Part shown: positions 9,793 through 36,133 of the stretch, piece after piece | Layout of the letters: every line of letters starts with the position of its first letter | Numbering within the stretch: position 1 is the first letter of the stretch | Assembly (NCBI GenBank): GCA_022705325.1 | Contig: JAKJER010000006.1 | Location: 169,097-233,096, forward strand | Direction: 5' to 3' | From: Planctomycetota bacterium | GTDB lineage: Bacteria > Planctomycetota > Phycisphaerae > SM23-33 | Length of the DNA: 64,000 nt | The notes under the pieces: generated by a model | What the model saw: the letters and a program-made list of their open reading frames with translations, nothing else | What the model was told of the DNA's origin: nothing | The model's database searches: none | Position numbers and translations under genes: made by a program

Positions 9793-9857
9793 GTTTCACC
9801 GCACAGCCGCTTGATCCGGCGACAGCCCGCCGACCGGGCCGCCTGTTGCTCGTCCAC

Positions 9858-9930
9858 CACGGCAGGGAGGACTTGAACCCCCAACCTGCGGTTTTGGAGA
9901 CCGCTGCTCTACCAATTGAGCTACTGCCGT
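9858..9930 (-). tRNA. tRNA-Trp (anticodon CCA)
   Basis: Reverse complement folds as a cloverleaf: ACGGCAG-TA-GCTC-AATTGGTA-GAGC-A-GCGGT-CTCCAAA-ACCGC-AGGTT-GGGGG-TTCAAGT-CCTCC-CTGCCGT-G. The anticodon loop is CUCCAAA, the discriminator is G, and CCA is not encoded. Confidence 0.9.
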
Positions 9931-9985
9931 GTGCCGCCCGCGGGAGGGCGGGGTTCCGTCCCGCGGGCGAGTCTGCACGCTGCTG

Positions 9986-11362: not shown

Positions 11363-11511
11363 CAGTAACGCTCCTCTTGTACGAGTTCTTGAATACTGCG
11401 TTTGTTTTGGGGCTTCCTGTCTATCGCTGACACCGCGTTGCTGCCCATCCTGCCGGGCCGGCCAAGCGTCGGCCTGTCCGCCATCCGGCTCGGCGGCCCC
11501 TGGGCCACCAG

Positions 11512-11583
<72 letters not shown>

Positions 11584-18886: not shown

Positions 18887-19530
18887 TGGGCGGGCGCTCC
18901 GCCGCAGACGGAGCCGCTACGGGCAAAGGGCCTGTGCCAACGCGGAAGAGGACAGGCGGGACGGCTGTCGTACCATAGTTGCGGCAGAGACGCGCGTTGT
19001 GCCCGAACGTTGCCATGCGTCGGCCTCGGATGACGCTAAGATATCCCCCGGCGAGCACGTTGAGAAGCAGAAACGGTTCTGGGCAAAGGCAAGCGGCAGC
19101 AAGCGAAAGAGACCCGAAGGGTCCAAAGCAGGTAGCCGGGGCGTACGGGTGCGTCGCTTGTAGTGTGCCCGTGAGGGCATCGCAGACCGTAAGCGTGTGG
19201 GCATCCCGAAGACCGCCTTACGGCGGGACTACGAGCGCCGCATTCGGAGCTCAAGCCGACGGCGTACGGGGAATTCAGGGAAAGGGAATTCCGCGGTCGC
19301 CCTGGGCTTTCCGAGACGCCCCCTGGGGGCTATTCCCGCCCACCGTCGCCCTTGCGGCGGCCCCTTGGGGGCAAGCGGTGATCCTGGGCCGCCCGTACGG
19401 CCCCCACCGGCCAGGTGATCGCGCGATTTCCGACGCCCTTCCACGACTTGGGTGTGGCACGAGCGGCGTCTTCCGGCCGGCGTGTCTTTCGGGTATCGTG
19501 GTGCGCTCAACGCCTTCAAGGAGCATCGCC

Positions 19531-20757
19531 ATGACGAAGTCCTCTCTTTCACGTCTGTTCGTCCCAGCCCTGGTCGCGGTGGCGAGTGTGTCGGCGGCCC
19601 TGGGCGCGGCGCAGGGGCCGGCGGCGGCAACCGCGGTCGCCATCGACGCCGACTACGGCGGCGGGAACGTGATCGTCGAGAAGATCGAAGGCGACGTGGT
19701 GCAGCTTCGCCCGGACCTGCGCGACACCAACGGATGGTGGTTCTACTTCAACTTCCGCGTGCGCGGGGCGGCTGGGCGGACGCTCACCTTCCGCTTCAGC
19801 GGGAACAATCCGATCGGCGTTCGCGGCCCGGCCGTCAGCGTCGACGGGGGTAAGAGCTGGTCGTGGCTGGGCGCGGAGACGGTCAAGGGGGCGGCGTTCA
19901 CGTACGCTTTCGGGCCCGGCGCGGGCGAGGTGCGTTTCTCGTTCGCCATCCCCTACCTGGAGCGGGACCTGAAGGAGTTCCTGGATCGCCACAAGGGCGA
20001 CAAGCACCTGGCCGTGCGGGAACACTGCAAGAGCAAGGCTGGGCGCAGCGTCGAGCGGATCCACGCGGGCAAGCTCGAAGGCGAGCCGCGGTTCCGCGTG
20101 CTGACGACCTCGCGACATCACGCCTGCGAGTCCATGGGCACCTACGCGATGGAGGGCCTGCTGGAGGCGGTGCTGGCTGACAGCGAAGACGGGCGGTGGT
20201 TCCGCGAGAACGTCGAGCTGGCGGCCGTGCCGTTCATGGACAAAGACGGCGTGGAGCAAGGCGACCAGGGCAAGAACCGCAAGCCCCGCGACCACAACCG
20301 CGACTACGCGGGCACGAGCGTGCACCCGGAGGTGGCGGCCATGCGGGAGTTTGCGCCCAGGTGGTCCGGGGGCCGGCTGGCGGCGGCGTTCGACCTGCAC
20401 TGCCCGTGGATCCGCGGGCCGCACAACGAGGTGATCTACATCGTGGGCAGCCGGCACGCGAAGATCTGGGAGCAGCAGCAGGCGTTCGCCAAGCTGCTGG
20501 AGAAGCTCCAGAGCGGCCCGCTGGCGTACAAGGCGGCGGACAATCTACCCTTCGGCCAGGCGTGGAACACCGGCGCCAACACCGGGGCCAACAAGAGCTT
20601 CGCCCTGTGGGCGAGCGAGTTGGAAGGCGTGCGGCTGGCAGCCTCGTTCGAGATCCCCTACGCCAACGCGGGCGGGCGGGTCGTCACGGGCGACGCGGCC
20701 CGCCAGTTCGGACGCAGCCTGGCCGGGGCGATCCGGGCCTACCTGGAGGGACGGTAG
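19531..20757 (+). CDS. M14-family zinc carboxypeptidase-like protein with an N-terminal beta-rich domain and signal peptide
   Basis: MTKSSLSRLFVPALVAVASVSAALGAAQG signal. An HxxE zinc motif (…TTSRHHACESMG…) and a downstream His fit the M14/succinylglutamate-desuccinylase superfamily. Start trimmed from the 592-aa ORF after a 720-nt non-coding stretch. Confidence 0.5.
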   Translation: MTKSSLSRLFVPALVAVASVSAALGAAQGPAAATAVAIDADYGGGNVIVEKIEGDVVQLRPDLRDTNGWWFYFNFRVRGAAGRTLTFRFSGNNPIGVRGPAVSVDGGKSWSWLGAETVKGAAFTYAFGPGAGEVRFSFAIPYLERDLKEFLDRHKGDKHLAVREHCKSKAGRSVERIHAGKLEGEPRFRVLTTSRHHACESMGTYAMEGLLEAVLADSEDGRWFRENVELAAVPFMDKDGVEQGDQGKNRKPRDHNRDYAGTSVHPEVAAMREFAPRWSGGRLAAAFDLHCPWIRGPHNEVIYIVGSRHAKIWEQQQAFAKLLEKLQSGPLAYKAADNLPFGQAWNTGANTGANKSFALWASELEGVRLAASFEIPYANAGGRVVTGDAARQFGRSLAGAIRAYLEGR

Positions 20758-20809: not shown

Positions 20810-21754
20810 TCAACCCTGGCGGGACCCTTGCGGGCGGAGGTACTTCACGATCTTGTCCATCATGGCGTCGAAGAACTCGTGGGAGTAGGTCACGCCGTGG
20901 TGGAGCCGAAGCGGGCGGATGTCCTCCGGGAGGTCGCCGCCCTGGGGGAAGGCGAAGTCGGGCATCATCAGGGGGATGATGTTGCTCTTGACGCGGATCG
21001 CCTGGGCGATCTCTTTGCGGACCCAGTCCTCGTCGTCGCGGCAATGGGCGAGCGAGTTGGGCGACAGGATGAGCAGGAAGTTCGGCGCGTAGGCGATTTC
21101 CGCGAGCAAGGCTTCGTCGAAGTGCCCGGTGGACAGGTCGTCCACGTCGAGGAACACGCTGAAGCCGCGCTGTCGCAGTTCCGCGCGGATGAGCCGGGCG
21201 GTCTGGCCGCCCTCGCGGCGTCGATAGCTGATGAACACGTCGCTGCCCTGCGGGGCGGGGGCGGCGGGGCTTGGCGGCGCGGGAGCAGCAGGCGGCCGGG
21301 CCGGCGCCTGCACGGGCGGTGGGGTCGCGGACGGCCTTGAGGGGGCCGACGTCGATGGCGGAAGCTTGCGGAGAATAGCAATCAGCCGCTCGACGTGCTT
21401 GGCCAGGGGCGGCGGGAAGAGGTCCATCCACGGGGCGTTGCCCAGCAGATACTCCAGCGTGCCGCGCGGTTGCACCTTCTCCAGGCGGCACGGGATGACG
21501 ACCTTGCCGCGGGCTGTCGCACACTCGATCTCGCGGATGATCTGCCGCGATTCGTTGGCCTCCTGGCTGAACAGGAAGACCACGACCCGGGCCGACTGAA
21601 TGGCGTCCAGGATGGACGTGGACCACTCCGCGCCCTCGGGGAGGTCCCTGGGGGCGAACCAACACCGCAGGCCGGCAGCCTCCAGTTGCTCACAGACGGC
21701 CTTGCGCTTGTCGGACTGCCGCAGCGGACACGTGATGAAGACGTCGTGCGCCAT
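20810..21754 (-). CDS. Tandem TIR-TIR domain protein: two Toll/interleukin-1-receptor-like domains joined by a Pro/Ala-rich linker
   Basis: Domain 1 is MAHDVFITCP…VVVFLFSQEANESRQIIREIE… and domain 2 is …SDVFISYRRREGG…FLLILSPNSLAHCRDDEDWVRKEI…. Both have the DVFIS/T betaA motif and the S-x-x-S…E (alphaC catalytic Glu) pattern of NAD-cleaving TIR domains. The linker is PPSTSAPSRPSATPPPVQAPARPPAAPAPPSPAAPAP. Confidence 0.7.
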   Translation of the reverse strand: MAHDVFITCPLRQSDKRKAVCEQLEAAGLRCWFAPRDLPEGAEWSTSILDAIQSARVVVFLFSQEANESRQIIREIECATARGKVVIPCRLEKVQPRGTLEYLLGNAPWMDLFPPPLAKHVERLIAILRKLPPSTSAPSRPSATPPPVQAPARPPAAPAPPSPAAPAPQGSDVFISYRRREGGQTARLIRAELRQRGFSVFLDVDDLSTGHFDEALLAEIAYAPNFLLILSPNSLAHCRDDEDWVRKEIAQAIRVKSNIIPLMMPDFAFPQGGDLPEDIRPLRLHHGVTYSHEFFDAMMDKIVKYLRPQGSRQG

Positions 21755-21864
21755 CGCTCCTGCACGATAACAGAATCGAACGAGGCTCGCCAGTTAAAGC
21801 CTTCGCGCGCGGACCCGCGGGAGCGCAGAACGCTCGGGCGGCGAGAACCGAACGGCGAATGTCT

Positions 21865-22030
21865 CAATGTCCCATTTTTTCGGAAGTTGTCCTGACGGAT
21901 TGGGAGGGCAAGACAGACTGCAACCGACCCTTCGTACGGCACTTACAGTCGCCTCTTCGAAAGCGTAAAAACAAGATTACCCTGAAATATCGGCGCAAAA
22001 ATGGGACATTCAGACCCTAAATGGGACATT
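21865..22030. promoter_or_regulatory. Operator-like repeats in a locally AT-richer spacer upstream of the TIR-TIR gene: 2 x AAATGGGACATT (direct, 20-nt phase) plus an inverted AATGTCCCATT copy
   Basis: AAATGGGACATT at 21999-22010 and 22019-22030; CAATGTCCCATTTTTT at 21865-21880. ATGGGACAT is itself a near-palindrome, and the 20-nt phasing equals two helical turns. Confidence 0.3.
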
Positions 22031-22085
22031 GGGACGTTCGGCTCTGTCGCGCCGGAGGCCAGGCCGGGCGTGGGCCTGGAAGTTC

Positions 22086-26227: not shown

Positions 26228-26275
26228 TCATCAGTGCCCTTGACGCCCTGTTCGGGCGGCGGGAAGATATCTCCC

Positions 26276-28597
26276 ATGAGAAGGCACATCCTTATCGTGC
26301 TCGTGTCTCTGGAACCCCTATTCGCTTCCGCACTTTCCGCCGCCCCGCCGGCGCAGTTTGCAGCCTGGGGCACGACCTGCGGGCCGCTCAAGCCCGTGCC
26401 CGCGGGCTGGAGACTCATCCAACCATCGCCCGCCCCCCCGCCGCCGCCGACCGAGCTCGACCGCAAGCGAGGCTTCCAGATCCTCAGTGACTCCGGATCG
26501 ACCAACGGCGAGCTGCGGCCGATCACCGCGCTTAACCTCTCAGCCGCGGTCGCCGAGTACGAGAGCGCCAGCTTCGTCCTCCACGCACTGCGGCCACTGG
26601 AGGGCGTGACGCTGCGGATCGTCGAACCGCCGGGCCCGCCAGGAGGGCCGGGCGTCGAGAAGACGGACCCGGCGTCGGCTGGCTGGCCGCTCTCGCCTGC
26701 GAACGTCGACATCCGCGTCGCCCGCGCCATACCCTTCCCGCTGGACGCCAAGGCCAAGACGTACCGCAAGGAAGACTGGGTGCTGGAGAAACTTCCGACG
26801 CTGACCCTCGCCGCCGGCGAGCGGGTGCGAGTCTGGCTGACCTTGCGGGCGGACGAGGTGGCGGAGCACCGCGGCAGATTGGAGGTCGCGGCCAACGACG
26901 CCGCGACGAGTCTGGAGGTGATCCTCCGCATCCTGCCGTTTTCCTTGCCCCCGCCGGCTGTCGAGTTCGCGATGTACTACCCGCGCCCGCCGGCCGACGA
27001 CGCCCAACTCGCCCGCGAGTTGATCGACATGCGCGAGCACGGCATGAACTCGATCCTGCCCGCGATTGAGGCGGTGATCAAGACACGCGACCGGAAGTTC
27101 AGCGCCGATGACATGCGGGCGACCCGCGAGCATGCCGAGCGGATGCTGCGGGCCGTGCGCGAGCACCTGGGGCCGCCGCGCTTTCCGCCCCTGGCGGCGG
27201 CCGGGCACCAGATCGCCTACTACTGGAACCAGCGGACCAACTGGTTCGAGTATTGGCCGCACACGCCGCAGATCGAGGCCGACCTGTTGGCTGCCTGCCG
27301 GCTGCTGGACGAGTTGGCCCGCGACCGCGGGGCCGCACGCACGCGGATCTACCTGGCCGACGAAGCCGCCGCTCACAACCTGCTCGACCAGGCTGCGCGG
27401 AGCTACGCCCTGGTCAAGCAGCGCCTGCCCGAGATGGAGACGTGGACCACGATCGGGGGCGGGCTGGCCATGGGCGTCGACGAGTTGGGGCCGCTGGACA
27501 AGTGTGTGGATTTCTTCGCGACCAACCGCTTCACGCCGCAGGTCGCCCGGCGGTTGGTAGGCCGTGGCAAGGCGTTCGGGGTGTATAACGGGGCGGGCCA
27601 CGCCCCCGAGCAGGCCCGCTTCTTCTTCGGCTTTTACGGGTGGAAGACGGCGGCAGCCCAGGTCTCGCAGTGGTGCTACCACTTCGGCGACTCGCCCTTC
27701 GCCGGCAACGGCCTGCGCAAGGAGGATGAGGGCTTCGTCTACCGCGCCGCCGACGGCCCTGTGCCAACGTTGATGTGGGAGGCTGTCCGCGAGGGCGTCG
27801 ACGACTTCCGCTACATGCAACTCCTCGCCCAATTCGTAGTCGCCGCCACGCTGCACGGCGGCGCCGCACCCCAGGCCGTCCATGACGCCCAGGCATGGTT
27901 GCGGGCGACGCTCGCAACGATCGACTGGAACGTCCAGCCACTTCGGTCCGAGGACCGCTCCGCCCCGCCGACCATGGCGCGCATGAACCAGTGGCGCCGC
28001 GAGGCGGTCGACCACATCCTCAAGCTCTCGCCGCAGGGCAAGCCTGCGCCCCTGCCGGAACTCGTCCGCTCGCCCTTCGACCACCCCTGGGCGTCGGCCG
28101 CCCAGCCGGTCAAGCTCGGCGAGGAACTCCTGCCCCAGGTGGGCTTCGAGACCGGCCTGGAACCTTGGCGCGTCGAGGCGTGGAACGGCAAGAGCAGTCA
28201 CCGCCTGGATGACCGCCAGCCGCACGCGGGCAAGCAGTCGGTCCGCATCGACATCCCTGCCGGCCAGCCCAGCACGGCCGTCACCGTCCTGGTCTTGCCG
28301 GGCTACGGTCCCAAGCCCTTCACCCGCACGCTGGCCGGCGGGAGCGGATACGAGCTTTCCGCCTGGGTCAATGCGCCCGCGAGACTCCCGCCGCAGCTCC
28401 GCGTTGCCCTCCCGGACGGCGCCACCGCAAAGACCCAGTCCGGTCAGGACGAGCCCGGCCCGGACGGTTGGCAGCGTCTGTGGCTGCGCGTCTGGCCCAA
28501 GGAGGACGCCAAGCCCAAGTACCTCGCCCTTTGGGTCCAGGGGCCGGGAACGGTGTGGGCGGACGACGTCAGCCTCCGGACGATCATTGACCATTGA
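26276..28597 (+). CDS. Secreted hypothetical glycoside-hydrolase-like protein (DUF4091/GH123-like?) with a C-terminal CBM4/9-like domain
   Basis: Signal peptide MRRHILIVLVSLEPLFASALSA. The central region (…IYLADEAAAH…) looks like a TIM barrel. The C-terminus (…WNGKSSHRLDD…YELSAWVNAP…VWADDVSL) resembles a carbohydrate-binding module. It ends …IIDH* inside a CATTGA heptamer array. Confidence 0.4.
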   Translation: MRRHILIVLVSLEPLFASALSAAPPAQFAAWGTTCGPLKPVPAGWRLIQPSPAPPPPPTELDRKRGFQILSDSGSTNGELRPITALNLSAAVAEYESASFVLHALRPLEGVTLRIVEPPGPPGGPGVEKTDPASAGWPLSPANVDIRVARAIPFPLDAKAKTYRKEDWVLEKLPTLTLAAGERVRVWLTLRADEVAEHRGRLEVAANDAATSLEVILRILPFSLPPPAVEFAMYYPRPPADDAQLARELIDMREHGMNSILPAIEAVIKTRDRKFSADDMRATREHAERMLRAVREHLGPPRFPPLAAAGHQIAYYWNQRTNWFEYWPHTPQIEADLLAACRLLDELARDRGAARTRIYLADEAAAHNLLDQAARSYALVKQRLPEMETWTTIGGGLAMGVDELGPLDKCVDFFATNRFTPQVARRLVGRGKAFGVYNGAGHAPEQARFFFGFYGWKTAAAQVSQWCYHFGDSPFAGNGLRKEDEGFVYRAADGPVPTLMWEAVREGVDDFRYMQLLAQFVVAATLHGGAAPQAVHDAQAWLRATLATIDWNVQPLRSEDRSAPPTMARMNQWRREAVDHILKLSPQGKPAPLPELVRSPFDHPWASAAQPVKLGEELLPQVGFETGLEPWRVEAWNGKSSHRLDDRQPHAGKQSVRIDIPAGQPSTAVTVLVLPGYGPKPFTRTLAGGSGYELSAWVNAPARLPPQLRVALPDGATAKTQSGQDEPGPDGWQRLWLRVWPKEDAKPKYLALWVQGPGTVWADDVSLRTIIDH

Positions 28598-36054: not shown

Positions 36055-36128
36055 GGGCCGTTAGCTCAGTTGGCTAGAGCGCCTGCTCGACACGCAGGAG
36101 GTCACTTGTTCAAGTCAAGTACGGCCCA
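36055..36128 (+). tRNA. tRNA-Val (anticodon GAC), with an unusual C at position 33
   Basis: GGGCCGT-TA-GCTC-AGTTGGCTA-GAGC-G-CCTGC-TCGACAC-GCAGG-AGGTC-ACTTG-TTCAAGT-CAAGT-ACGGCCC-A. All four arms pair. Anticodon-loop positions 34-36 are GAC. Confidence 0.65.
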
Positions 36129-36133
36129 CTTGA

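Follow-up and report, generated by a model that had tools for sequence, protein, structure and literature searches.

Most members of the clade to which the TIR domain of SARM1 has been assigned are bacterial (PMC13142454), and for this reason a SARM1-like TIR in a bacterium is not in itself new; the bacterial members of that clade ("Clade 8") carry one TIR combined with a kinase, GAF, TPR, membrane or other domain. In the literature searched, neither an experimental characterisation of a bacterial SARM1-clade TIR nor a description of a protein from bacteria having at least two TIR domains was found, the nearest cases being the mollusc twin-TIR Toll receptors (PMC4929906), Dictyostelium TirE and Drosophila Raw, in which a pair of divergent TIRs makes up a single pocket for the hydrolysis of cyclic ADP-ribose (cADPR), the protein acting on the product of dSarm (PMC13455253). 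The systematic survey of TIR signalling and Thoeris made in 2025 removed the stand-alone TIR proteins (10.64898/2025.12.03.692087), which is why a stand-alone class could be left undescribed though common. The subject of the present analysis is a gene of this kind, located in a 64,000-nucleotide stretch of DNA of a Planctomycetota bacterium (assembly GCA_022705325.1, contig JAKJER010000006.1, positions 169,097 to 233,096; hereafter the window), whose 314-residue product consists of a canonical N-terminal TIR and a C-terminal TIR of the SARM1 clade joined by a disordered linker.

When the two halves of the protein were scanned as separate sequences against Pfam TIR_2 (PF13676, gathering cut-off 28 bits), each passed on its own, the N half with 64.7 bits (E 1.5e-17, residues 5-114) and the C half with 56.2 bits (E 6.1e-15, about residues 171-285), and all the Pfam domains above cut-off in the entire protein are of the TIR type, with no second domain type. 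The AlphaFold2 model, for which a 22-sequence alignment of the family was the input, has a mean predicted local distance difference test (pLDDT) value of 86 and contains two alternating beta-alpha domains (residues 5-130 and 173-305, mostly with pLDDT >90), whereas the pLDDT falls below 50 over most of residues 137-165 of the linker, LPPSTSAPSRPSATPPPVQAPARPPAAPAPPSPAAPAPQG, the coding stretch of which has a GC content of 0.85. Foldseek matches the model to SARM1, AbTir, MyD88, the SPARTA TIR and PdTIR. Both halves are genuine TIR domains. An earlier annotation made from the letters of the DNA (hereafter the sequence-only reading) had proposed two complete TIR domains, a Pro/Ala-rich linker and, in each half, a betaA DVFI(S/T) motif and a glutamate in the catalytic position; all of this is borne out, the motifs being DVFIT in the N-terminal and DVFIS in the C-terminal TIR and the glutamates E75 and E248, and its reservation that the domains might turn out to have some other fold can be lifted, both halves being TIR by profile. 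The description "tandem TIR-TIR" given there holds insofar as two TIRs are present in one chain, but not in the sense of a duplication: an internal duplication was rejected, the halves being about 20% identical (BLASTP E 0.16) and belonging to different TIR subfamilies.

The most informative fact about the protein, absent from the sequence-only reading, is the identity of its C-terminal TIR. A phmmer search of the PDB sequences aligns residues 157-313 with human SARM1 at E 4e-33 and the domain with C. elegans TIR-1 at E about 1e-30, whereas the next non-SARM1 sequence has E >0.06; superposition of the modelled domain on crystal structures of the SARM1 TIR yields a template modelling (TM) score of 0.94, a root-mean-square deviation of 1.2 Å and 42% identity (Foldseek), the alignment with SARM1 561-700 gives 41% identity, and the identity to TIR-1 is 45-46%. 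The C-terminal TIR is a member of the SARM1 clade. In the alignment, SARM1 residues Y568, R569, R570, D594, G601, F603, C629, W638, E642 and H685, whose catalytic or NAD-binding roles are summarised in PMC7075850, correspond to Y177, R178, R179, D203, G210, F212, C238, W244, E248 and H292, respectively; the first nine of these are invariant in 22 of 22 full-length family members, while the H292 position is His in most of them and Asn in two. The equivalent positions are about 88-100% conserved in 106 bacterial proteins with a single SARM1-type TIR, the position of E248 being Glu in all 106, and hundreds of "Clade 8" TIRs, which belong to the same subfamily, have the same invariant residues. 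Likewise, the BB loop FLDVDDLxxGxFD is invariant in the family and the same in the single-TIR relatives.

The C-terminal TIR and that of SARM1 share the catalytic Glu, the SYRR motif, the Asp and Gly of the BB loop, the Phe and Trp of the pocket, the pocket His in most members of the family and the SARM1-specific variant of the fold. The ARM-SAM-SAM-TIR architecture of SARM1 is not found in the protein, in which Pfam recognises TIR domains only; having neither ARM nor SAM, it lacks the allosteric switch operated by nicotinamide mononucleotide and NAD+ and the octamer ring, and a canonical TIR stands in place of ARM/SAM. Within the domain itself, K597 of SARM1 is replaced by an Asp (D206) that is invariant in the two-TIR family, and the loop ahead of the catalytic helix has three residues fewer.

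The N-terminal TIR carries the canonical motifs, namely Box 1 (DVFIT), a Box 2-like PRDLPEG in the BB loop and E75, which aligns with E248 in a half-versus-half BLASTP as well as in the family alignment. Its profile retrieves about 100 PDB chains at E up to 1, those listed being TIR proteins: Hydra TRR-2 (1.4e-10), oyster TIR-STING, PdTIR, Cat1, TLRs, Roq1, AbTir and MyD88. The mean pairwise identity in the family is 36% for this domain as against 60% for the C-terminal TIR, so that the former is the faster-evolving of the two. Glu occupies the E75 position in 43 of the 46 family members; in the related multi-TIR arrays described below, 144 of the 158 N-type domains, as TIRs of this subfamily are called here, have a Glu in the catalytic position. 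On the other hand, the position four residues before E75, occupied by Trp in the SARM1-type TIRs, is Q71 in this protein and varies among Q, H, W, N, F and E in the family. The linker of the homologues ranges from 9 to 49 residues, with no conservation of sequence.

The distribution of this arrangement was surveyed at several depths. A word-index search returned about 25 full-length relatives at 39-52% identity together with many matches to the C half only, and 8,797 proteins at E up to 1e-30 emerged when 1.84 billion representatives were searched exhaustively with a profile. Separate hidden Markov models (HMMs) for the N-type and for the SARM1-type TIR (C) were then run on 225 retrieved relatives: the order N-C occurs in 47 of them, C as the sole TIR in 106 and N as the sole TIR in 12; two, three, four and five consecutive N are found in 10, 8, 7 and 12 proteins, respectively, and six or seven in four; the remainder are C-C (six), C-N (four), N-N-C (four) and other mixed orders (five). 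The N-C pair is a recurrent but uncharacterised family, and proteins with several TIRs are often met with in metagenomic data. Among the reference genomes, the full-length form has a patchy distribution over five lineages, being present in metagenome-assembled genomes (MAGs) of Phycisphaerae, Planctomycetaceae, Thermoleophilia, Anaerolineales and Chloroflexia, and one public assembly encodes a protein (P0001) identical to the one studied here, its gene again having the transporter, tmk, holB and peptidase-like genes around it. The sequence-only reading knew of no described system with this architecture; none was found in the literature searched, yet with 47 of 225 relatives being N-C the architecture cannot be called rare. 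It has escaped study, not sight, and would represent an architectural variant of the regulated TIR NADase.

The other architectures provide a context for the pair. The SARM1-type TIR occurs without any other domain in only 3 of the 106 single-TIR proteins, being otherwise fused, at either terminus, to kinase, GAF, TPR, HSP70-like, AAA or FGE-sulfatase domains; the N-C pair itself is found joined to a Ser/Thr kinase (P0099) and to a CHAT protease (P0145), and in P0165 an NB-ARC domain lies between the two TIRs. The multi-TIR arrays, like the mollusc twin-TIR receptors, have several TIRs in tandem in one chain, and their repeated unit is of the same subfamily as the N-terminal TIR; they differ in that one type of TIR is repeated two to seven times, usually with repeat-domain sensors and often with terminal WD40 repeats, whereas here an N-type and a SARM1-type TIR stand side by side with nothing else. 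P0100, P0103, P0106 and similar proteins of 1,500-2,300 residues have five to seven consecutive N-type TIRs followed by WD40 propellers, and no description of arrays of this type was found in the literature searched. P0003 (loci L007, L028 and L029, Phycisphaerae MAG) and P0004 have two N-type TIRs ahead of a SARM1-type TIR, the former protein beginning with a short Cys-rich stretch that resembles a zinc ribbon. In a Chloroflexia MAG (L011, 6886-7819) the N-C gene is broken into two overlapping open reading frames (ORFs) in different frames, which may be a frameshifted pseudogene or an assembly error.

If the catalytic domain of SARM1 is combined here with neither ARM nor SAM, how could its activity be controlled? 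The reading that we favour, tentatively and at somewhat less than an even chance, is that of a stand-alone NADase effector of the SARM1 type, activated by oligomerisation and controlled by the N-terminal TIR as an assembly or sensor module. Because the active site of SARM1 is conserved in the C-terminal TIR, NAD+ cleavage is the most probable chemistry of this domain, which, as the catalytic effector, would convert NAD+ into nicotinamide and ADP-ribose (ADPR) and/or cADPR by means of E248 and of the conserved pocket formed by Y177, R178, R179, F212, W244 and H292. As in SARM1, the domain would be activated only upon head-to-tail packing of several C-terminal TIRs, with the invariant BB loop of one completing the active site of the next molecule; homotypic contacts between C-terminal TIRs are suggested by the very invariance of this loop and by its identity with that of the single-TIR relatives. 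A TIR NADase activated by multimerisation has been reported (bioRxiv 10.64898/2026.09.16.751991). Since the SARM1-type TIR is rarely alone and is fused to varied domains, it is likely to be a common and dangerous effector placed under variable regulators, and the N-terminal TIR, on its flexible tether, would fill the slot taken in relatives by kinase, GAF, TPR, NB-ARC and other domains. As a regulatory, sensing or assembly module it may hold the effector apart and inactive, and homotypic TIR-TIR contacts, established either with its own copies or with TIR proteins encoded elsewhere, may nucleate oligomerisation; its faster evolution fits a module devoted to sensing or recognition. The likely role would be NAD+ depletion or ADPR-type signalling in a conflict response of the abortive-infection or programmed-death type. 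In favour of this reading count the patchy distribution over five bacterial lineages and the fact that in 3 of 16 N-C loci a second N-type TIR gene directly adjoins the N-C gene (L030, 3799-4794; L035, 4063-4395, minus strand; L038, 4992-5306).

Several observations weigh against it. No second TIR gene that could serve as a partner is present in the window, as judged by applying the family HMMs to all its six-frame ORFs; the GC content at third codon positions (GC3) of the two-TIR gene is 0.89, compared with 0.92-0.96 in the neighbouring genes, and is host-like; the surroundings of the gene, in the window as well as in several homologues, are housekeeping genes (argB, argF, tmk, holB, glycoside hydrolases) and not a defence island; the AlphaFold2 output is uninformative on intermolecular assembly; and the retention of Glu at the E75 position would be needless for a purely regulatory scaffold. 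The last point is less telling, because >70% of all TIRs conserve the Glu, among them groups without reported NADase activity (PMC7075850).

The retention of E75 could nevertheless signify that the chain contains two enzymes of different chemistry, the N-terminal TIR making a cADPR isomer or processing the product of the SARM1-type TIR, as Raw does with that of dSarm, or the signal of one TIR activating the other. The conservation of the Glu in the family as well as in the arrays and the canonical Box 1 and Box 2 motifs agree with this possibility, as does the activity of many TIRs having this Glu, including the TIRs of animal TLRs (bioRxiv 10.64898/2026.04.20.719644), and the cooperation of SARM1 with a two-TIR hydrolase offers a precedent (PMC13455253). 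However, the aromatic residue at position -4 (W638 in SARM1, W244 in the C-terminal TIR) is replaced by the variable Q71, the N-terminal TIR is much less conserved overall, the Glu is also kept by TIR groups in which no NADase activity has been reported (PMC7075850), and the protein has no ligand-sensing domain that could receive a signal. On balance, we consider this explanation unlikely, if still worth bearing in mind. As to Raw itself, it resembles the present protein in having two TIR-fold domains per polypeptide, in its functional link with a SARM1-type TIR and in that both lineages are said to derive from bacteria; on the other hand, its TIRs are divergent, are split by dimerisation domains and lack NADase activity (PMC13455253), whereas the protein studied here joins a canonical TIR_2, at its N terminus, to a SARM1-type TIR within one chain. 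A comparison made by description alone sets the two apart, and with the Raw TIRs described as a distinct cluster (PMC13455253) membership of the protein in the Raw family is unlikely.

The sequence-only reading had suggested instead that the two TIRs build a self-sufficient composite active site in cis, in which, by a BE-type packing, the N-terminal BB loop would complete the C-terminal site or the reverse, yielding a constitutive NADase or signal generator that needs no oligomerisation. TIR catalysis does require a second TIR and a dimeric TIR effector, TSR1, is active (bioRxiv 10.64898/2026.09.16.751991), Raw builds one pocket from the two TIRs of one chain (PMC13455253), both domains keep the Glu, and the order N-to-C is constant in the family. 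Yet a fixed packing of the two domains is unsupported: the predicted TM-score (pTM) of the AlphaFold2 model is 0.53 for the two-TIR protein and again 0.53 for P0017, the member with the shortest linker (9 residues), the domains having a pLDDT of about 90 in both. Furthermore, the linker is conserved neither in length nor in sequence, and the BB loop of the C-terminal TIR, being invariant and identical to that of the single-TIR relatives, points to contacts between like domains of different molecules. To judge from expression of the SARM1 TIR, a constitutive NADase of this type would be expected to be toxic. A composite site in cis seems to us quite improbable.

How does the locus compare with the known bacterial TIR systems? 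The protein shares with Thoeris ThsB and other signal-producing TIRs the catalytic Glu and weak profile matches, which are a partial one to Pfam ThsB_TIR (residues 45-93) and one to NCBIfam ThcB4 of Thoeris type III (51.7 bits versus a cut-off of 220, no curated NCBIfam cut-off being reached); unlike in Thoeris, however, in none of 16 loci does the two-TIR gene adjoin an effector gene such as ThsA or Macro-TM. The protein has no SAVED, STING, CARF or APAZ domain that would assign it to TIR-SAVED, TIR-STING, Cat1 or SPARTA TIR-APAZ, and its PADLOC matches cover just the TIR portion of those models. The absence of an effector partner next to the gene, noticed in the sequence-only reading, extends beyond the window. 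No PADLOC defence model matches any of the six large neighbouring ORFs (11.8-28.6 kb), and an all-against-all comparison of all ORFs of at least 70 residues at the 16 N-C loci, which correspond to about 11 independent lineages, revealed no shared neighbour family and no common partner: only the TIR gene and alternative-frame ORFs within it recur, common neighbours being almost confined to close genomes (L007 and L008, L010 and L011, L034 and L035, the window and L032). The gene being a fragment of a known multigene system, an eventuality that the earlier reading had named as fatal to its proposal, was rejected on these grounds. Since no neighbour is conserved in the 16 loci, the protein would have to be either self-contained in function or dependent on unlinked partners.

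The flanking genes fare no better as functional partners. The SLC12-like transporter and the M14-like peptidase gene that border the gene in the window were rejected in this role, neither of them recurring in distant loci; even in a relative 87% identical only the TIR gene and the M14-like gene are kept, a divergent histidine kinase gene is found where the transporter would be, and synteny ends at position 21807, about 50 bp upstream of the start codon. Three loci (the window, L005 and L031) have a housekeeping context. A different picture is offered by a Thermoleophilia MAG (L001, 4792-5127 and 13513-15795), in which DUF4062, E2-CBASS with ThiF (E1-like) and several WD40 genes are found within 8 kb, a defence-island-like context unlike that of the other N-C loci; according to 2026 preprints, DUF4062 is a defence family of TIR-like NADases. 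In L002 the N-C gene lies beside a PemK toxin gene.

This mixed picture bears on the question whether the protein serves immunity at all. It might be a regulated NAD(P)+ glycohydrolase with a physiological role in dormancy, stress or metabolic control: its GC3 is native-like, it lies between transporter, peptidase and core genes, several homologues also reside in metabolic neighbourhoods, and no full-length copy was found on a phage or plasmid, a single partial match having been obtained among 2.9 million viral contigs. However, a patchy presence across distant phyla devoid of conserved synteny is typical of conflict genes, and the break of synteny so close to the start codon in the 87%-identical relative goes in the same direction; moreover, CHAT, NB-ARC, WD40 arrays and kinases, the fusion partners of the family, belong to the repertoire of prokaryotic conflict systems (PMC7159879), and some homologues stand beside the DUF4062, E2-CBASS/ThiF or PemK genes just mentioned. 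A non-immune role is, in our estimation, improbable, slightly more so than a composite site in cis.

The collections of mobile and viral sequences yielded partial matches only. No full-length two-TIR copy was found in 50,697 phage records, 72,556 plasmids (PLSDB) or 2.9 million viral contigs (IMG/VR). The phage collection yielded a single match, to residues 1-111 at 35% identity, namely an N-type TIR (MT836910.1, 1560-1892) encoded by an unannotated 8.3-kb phage contig from a human faecal metagenome; PLSDB contains three partial C-type matches, on Paraburkholderia megaplasmids, IMG/VR one, a single-TIR locus, and the structure matches in BFVD are generic TIR or deoxyribosyltransferase folds only. 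A phage, plasmid or viral origin and the function of a phage decoy are unsupported. The sequence-only reading had also entertained a decoy or immune-evasion protein, that is a catalytically irrelevant TIR mimic that, in a Tcp-like manner, would poison the assemblies that TIRs form in a competitor, a host or a defence system. Known bacterial TIR virulence factors act through heterotypic TIR-TIR binding, and a two-TIR protein could cap filaments. Against this, a decoy would have no need of the invariant catalytic and NAD-pocket residues seen here, no secretion-system context is evident among the annotated neighbouring genes, and the family occurs in environmental MAGs, with no full-length copy in the phage or viral collections; such a function is very improbable indeed.

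The coordinates of the gene and of its parts are collected in Table 1.

Table 1. Layout of the two-TIR gene and its upstream spacer (window coordinates)
Feature	Position	Strand	Remarks
Two-TIR ORF	20810..21754	-	ATG start, stop codon within span, 314 aa
N-terminal TIR domain	21365..21748	-	residues 3-130; translation confirmed
E75 codon, catalytic position of N-terminal TIR	21530..21532	-	codon confirmed
Pro/Ala-rich disordered linker	21245..21364	-	residues 131-170
C-terminal SARM1-type TIR domain	20837..21244	-	residues 171-306; translation confirmed
E248 codon, equivalent of SARM1 catalytic E642	21011..21013	-	codon confirmed
Upstream spacer, presumed promoter region	21755..22085	-	331 nt, GC 0.58, three AATGTCCCATTT copies

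The spacer, which the sequence-only reading had put at about 330 nucleotides, in agreement with the measured length, separates the gene from a co-directional upstream gene with AA_permease and SLC12 domains. It is AT-richer than its surroundings, and the 12-mer AATGTCCCATTT is present in it at 21866-21877 (plus strand), 21999-22010 and 22019-22030 (both minus strand), while it is absent from the rest of the 64 kb, the expected count being 0.07. The copies extend to inverted arms of 22 nucleotides that are 91% complementary and 111-141 nucleotides apart, making up an element (21856-22040) just ahead of which the synteny with the 87%-identical relative stops. From its sequence, the element might serve the TIR gene as an operator or be a remnant resembling a miniature inverted-repeat transposable element (MITE). 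A scan for promoters and terminators around the TIR gene found no sigma-70 consensus and nothing beyond the expectation from shuffled sequences.

On the other side lies the convergent gene (18979-20757, plus strand; probable start near 19534), whose product has a probable N-terminal signal sequence and matches, in a search of the PDB sequences, the M14 metallocarboxypeptidases 4a37 (E 9e-11) and 4b6z, named "family M14 unassigned peptidase". Although no Pfam M14 match is found at E up to 0.001, the protein appears from its sequence to be a divergent M14-like one, so that the M14 peptidase of the sequence-only reading can stand. Elsewhere in the window, an ORF of 787 residues (26234-28597, plus strand) has no Pfam or PADLOC match and has a counterpart of 773 residues in the identical public contig L027; tRNA genes are found for Trp-CCA (9857-9931), Thr-GGT (11511-11583) and Val-GAC (36055-36129), and the gathering score is attained by no further Rfam family, rRNA included.

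SARM1 is a major drug target in axon degeneration and its TIR is thought to be bacterial in origin. The family described here represents a minimal, predicted soluble bacterial version, of 300 residues, of the catalytic domain of SARM1, in which a second TIR would replace the ARM/SAM control. The N-terminal TIR might be more than a regulator, a proposal that we put forward as improbable to much the same degree as a composite site in cis: it could be either a bacterial heterotypic adaptor TIR that recruits a SARM1-type executioner into assemblies seeded by unlinked multi-TIR, WD40 or NB-ARC sensors, or one half of a fused pair that leads in two steps from NAD+ to signal to product. If the former were true, the family would be a prokaryotic counterpart of the receptor-adaptor-effector TIR signalosomes; if the latter, it would be a "Rosetta stone" for SARM1 and a second TIR enzyme, as dSarm is with Raw. 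Should the N-terminal TIR gate or nucleate the activity of the C-terminal one, as in the reading that we favour, the protein would offer a simple model for the heterotypic TIR-TIR switching of a TIR enzyme and would add to bacterial TIR immunity a single-gene, stand-alone class that the systematic surveys have left out on purpose. If it is merely another regulated NADase, the analysis would still provide a useful annotation for an uncharacterised family of MAGs of Planctomycetota, Chloroflexota and Actinomycetota.

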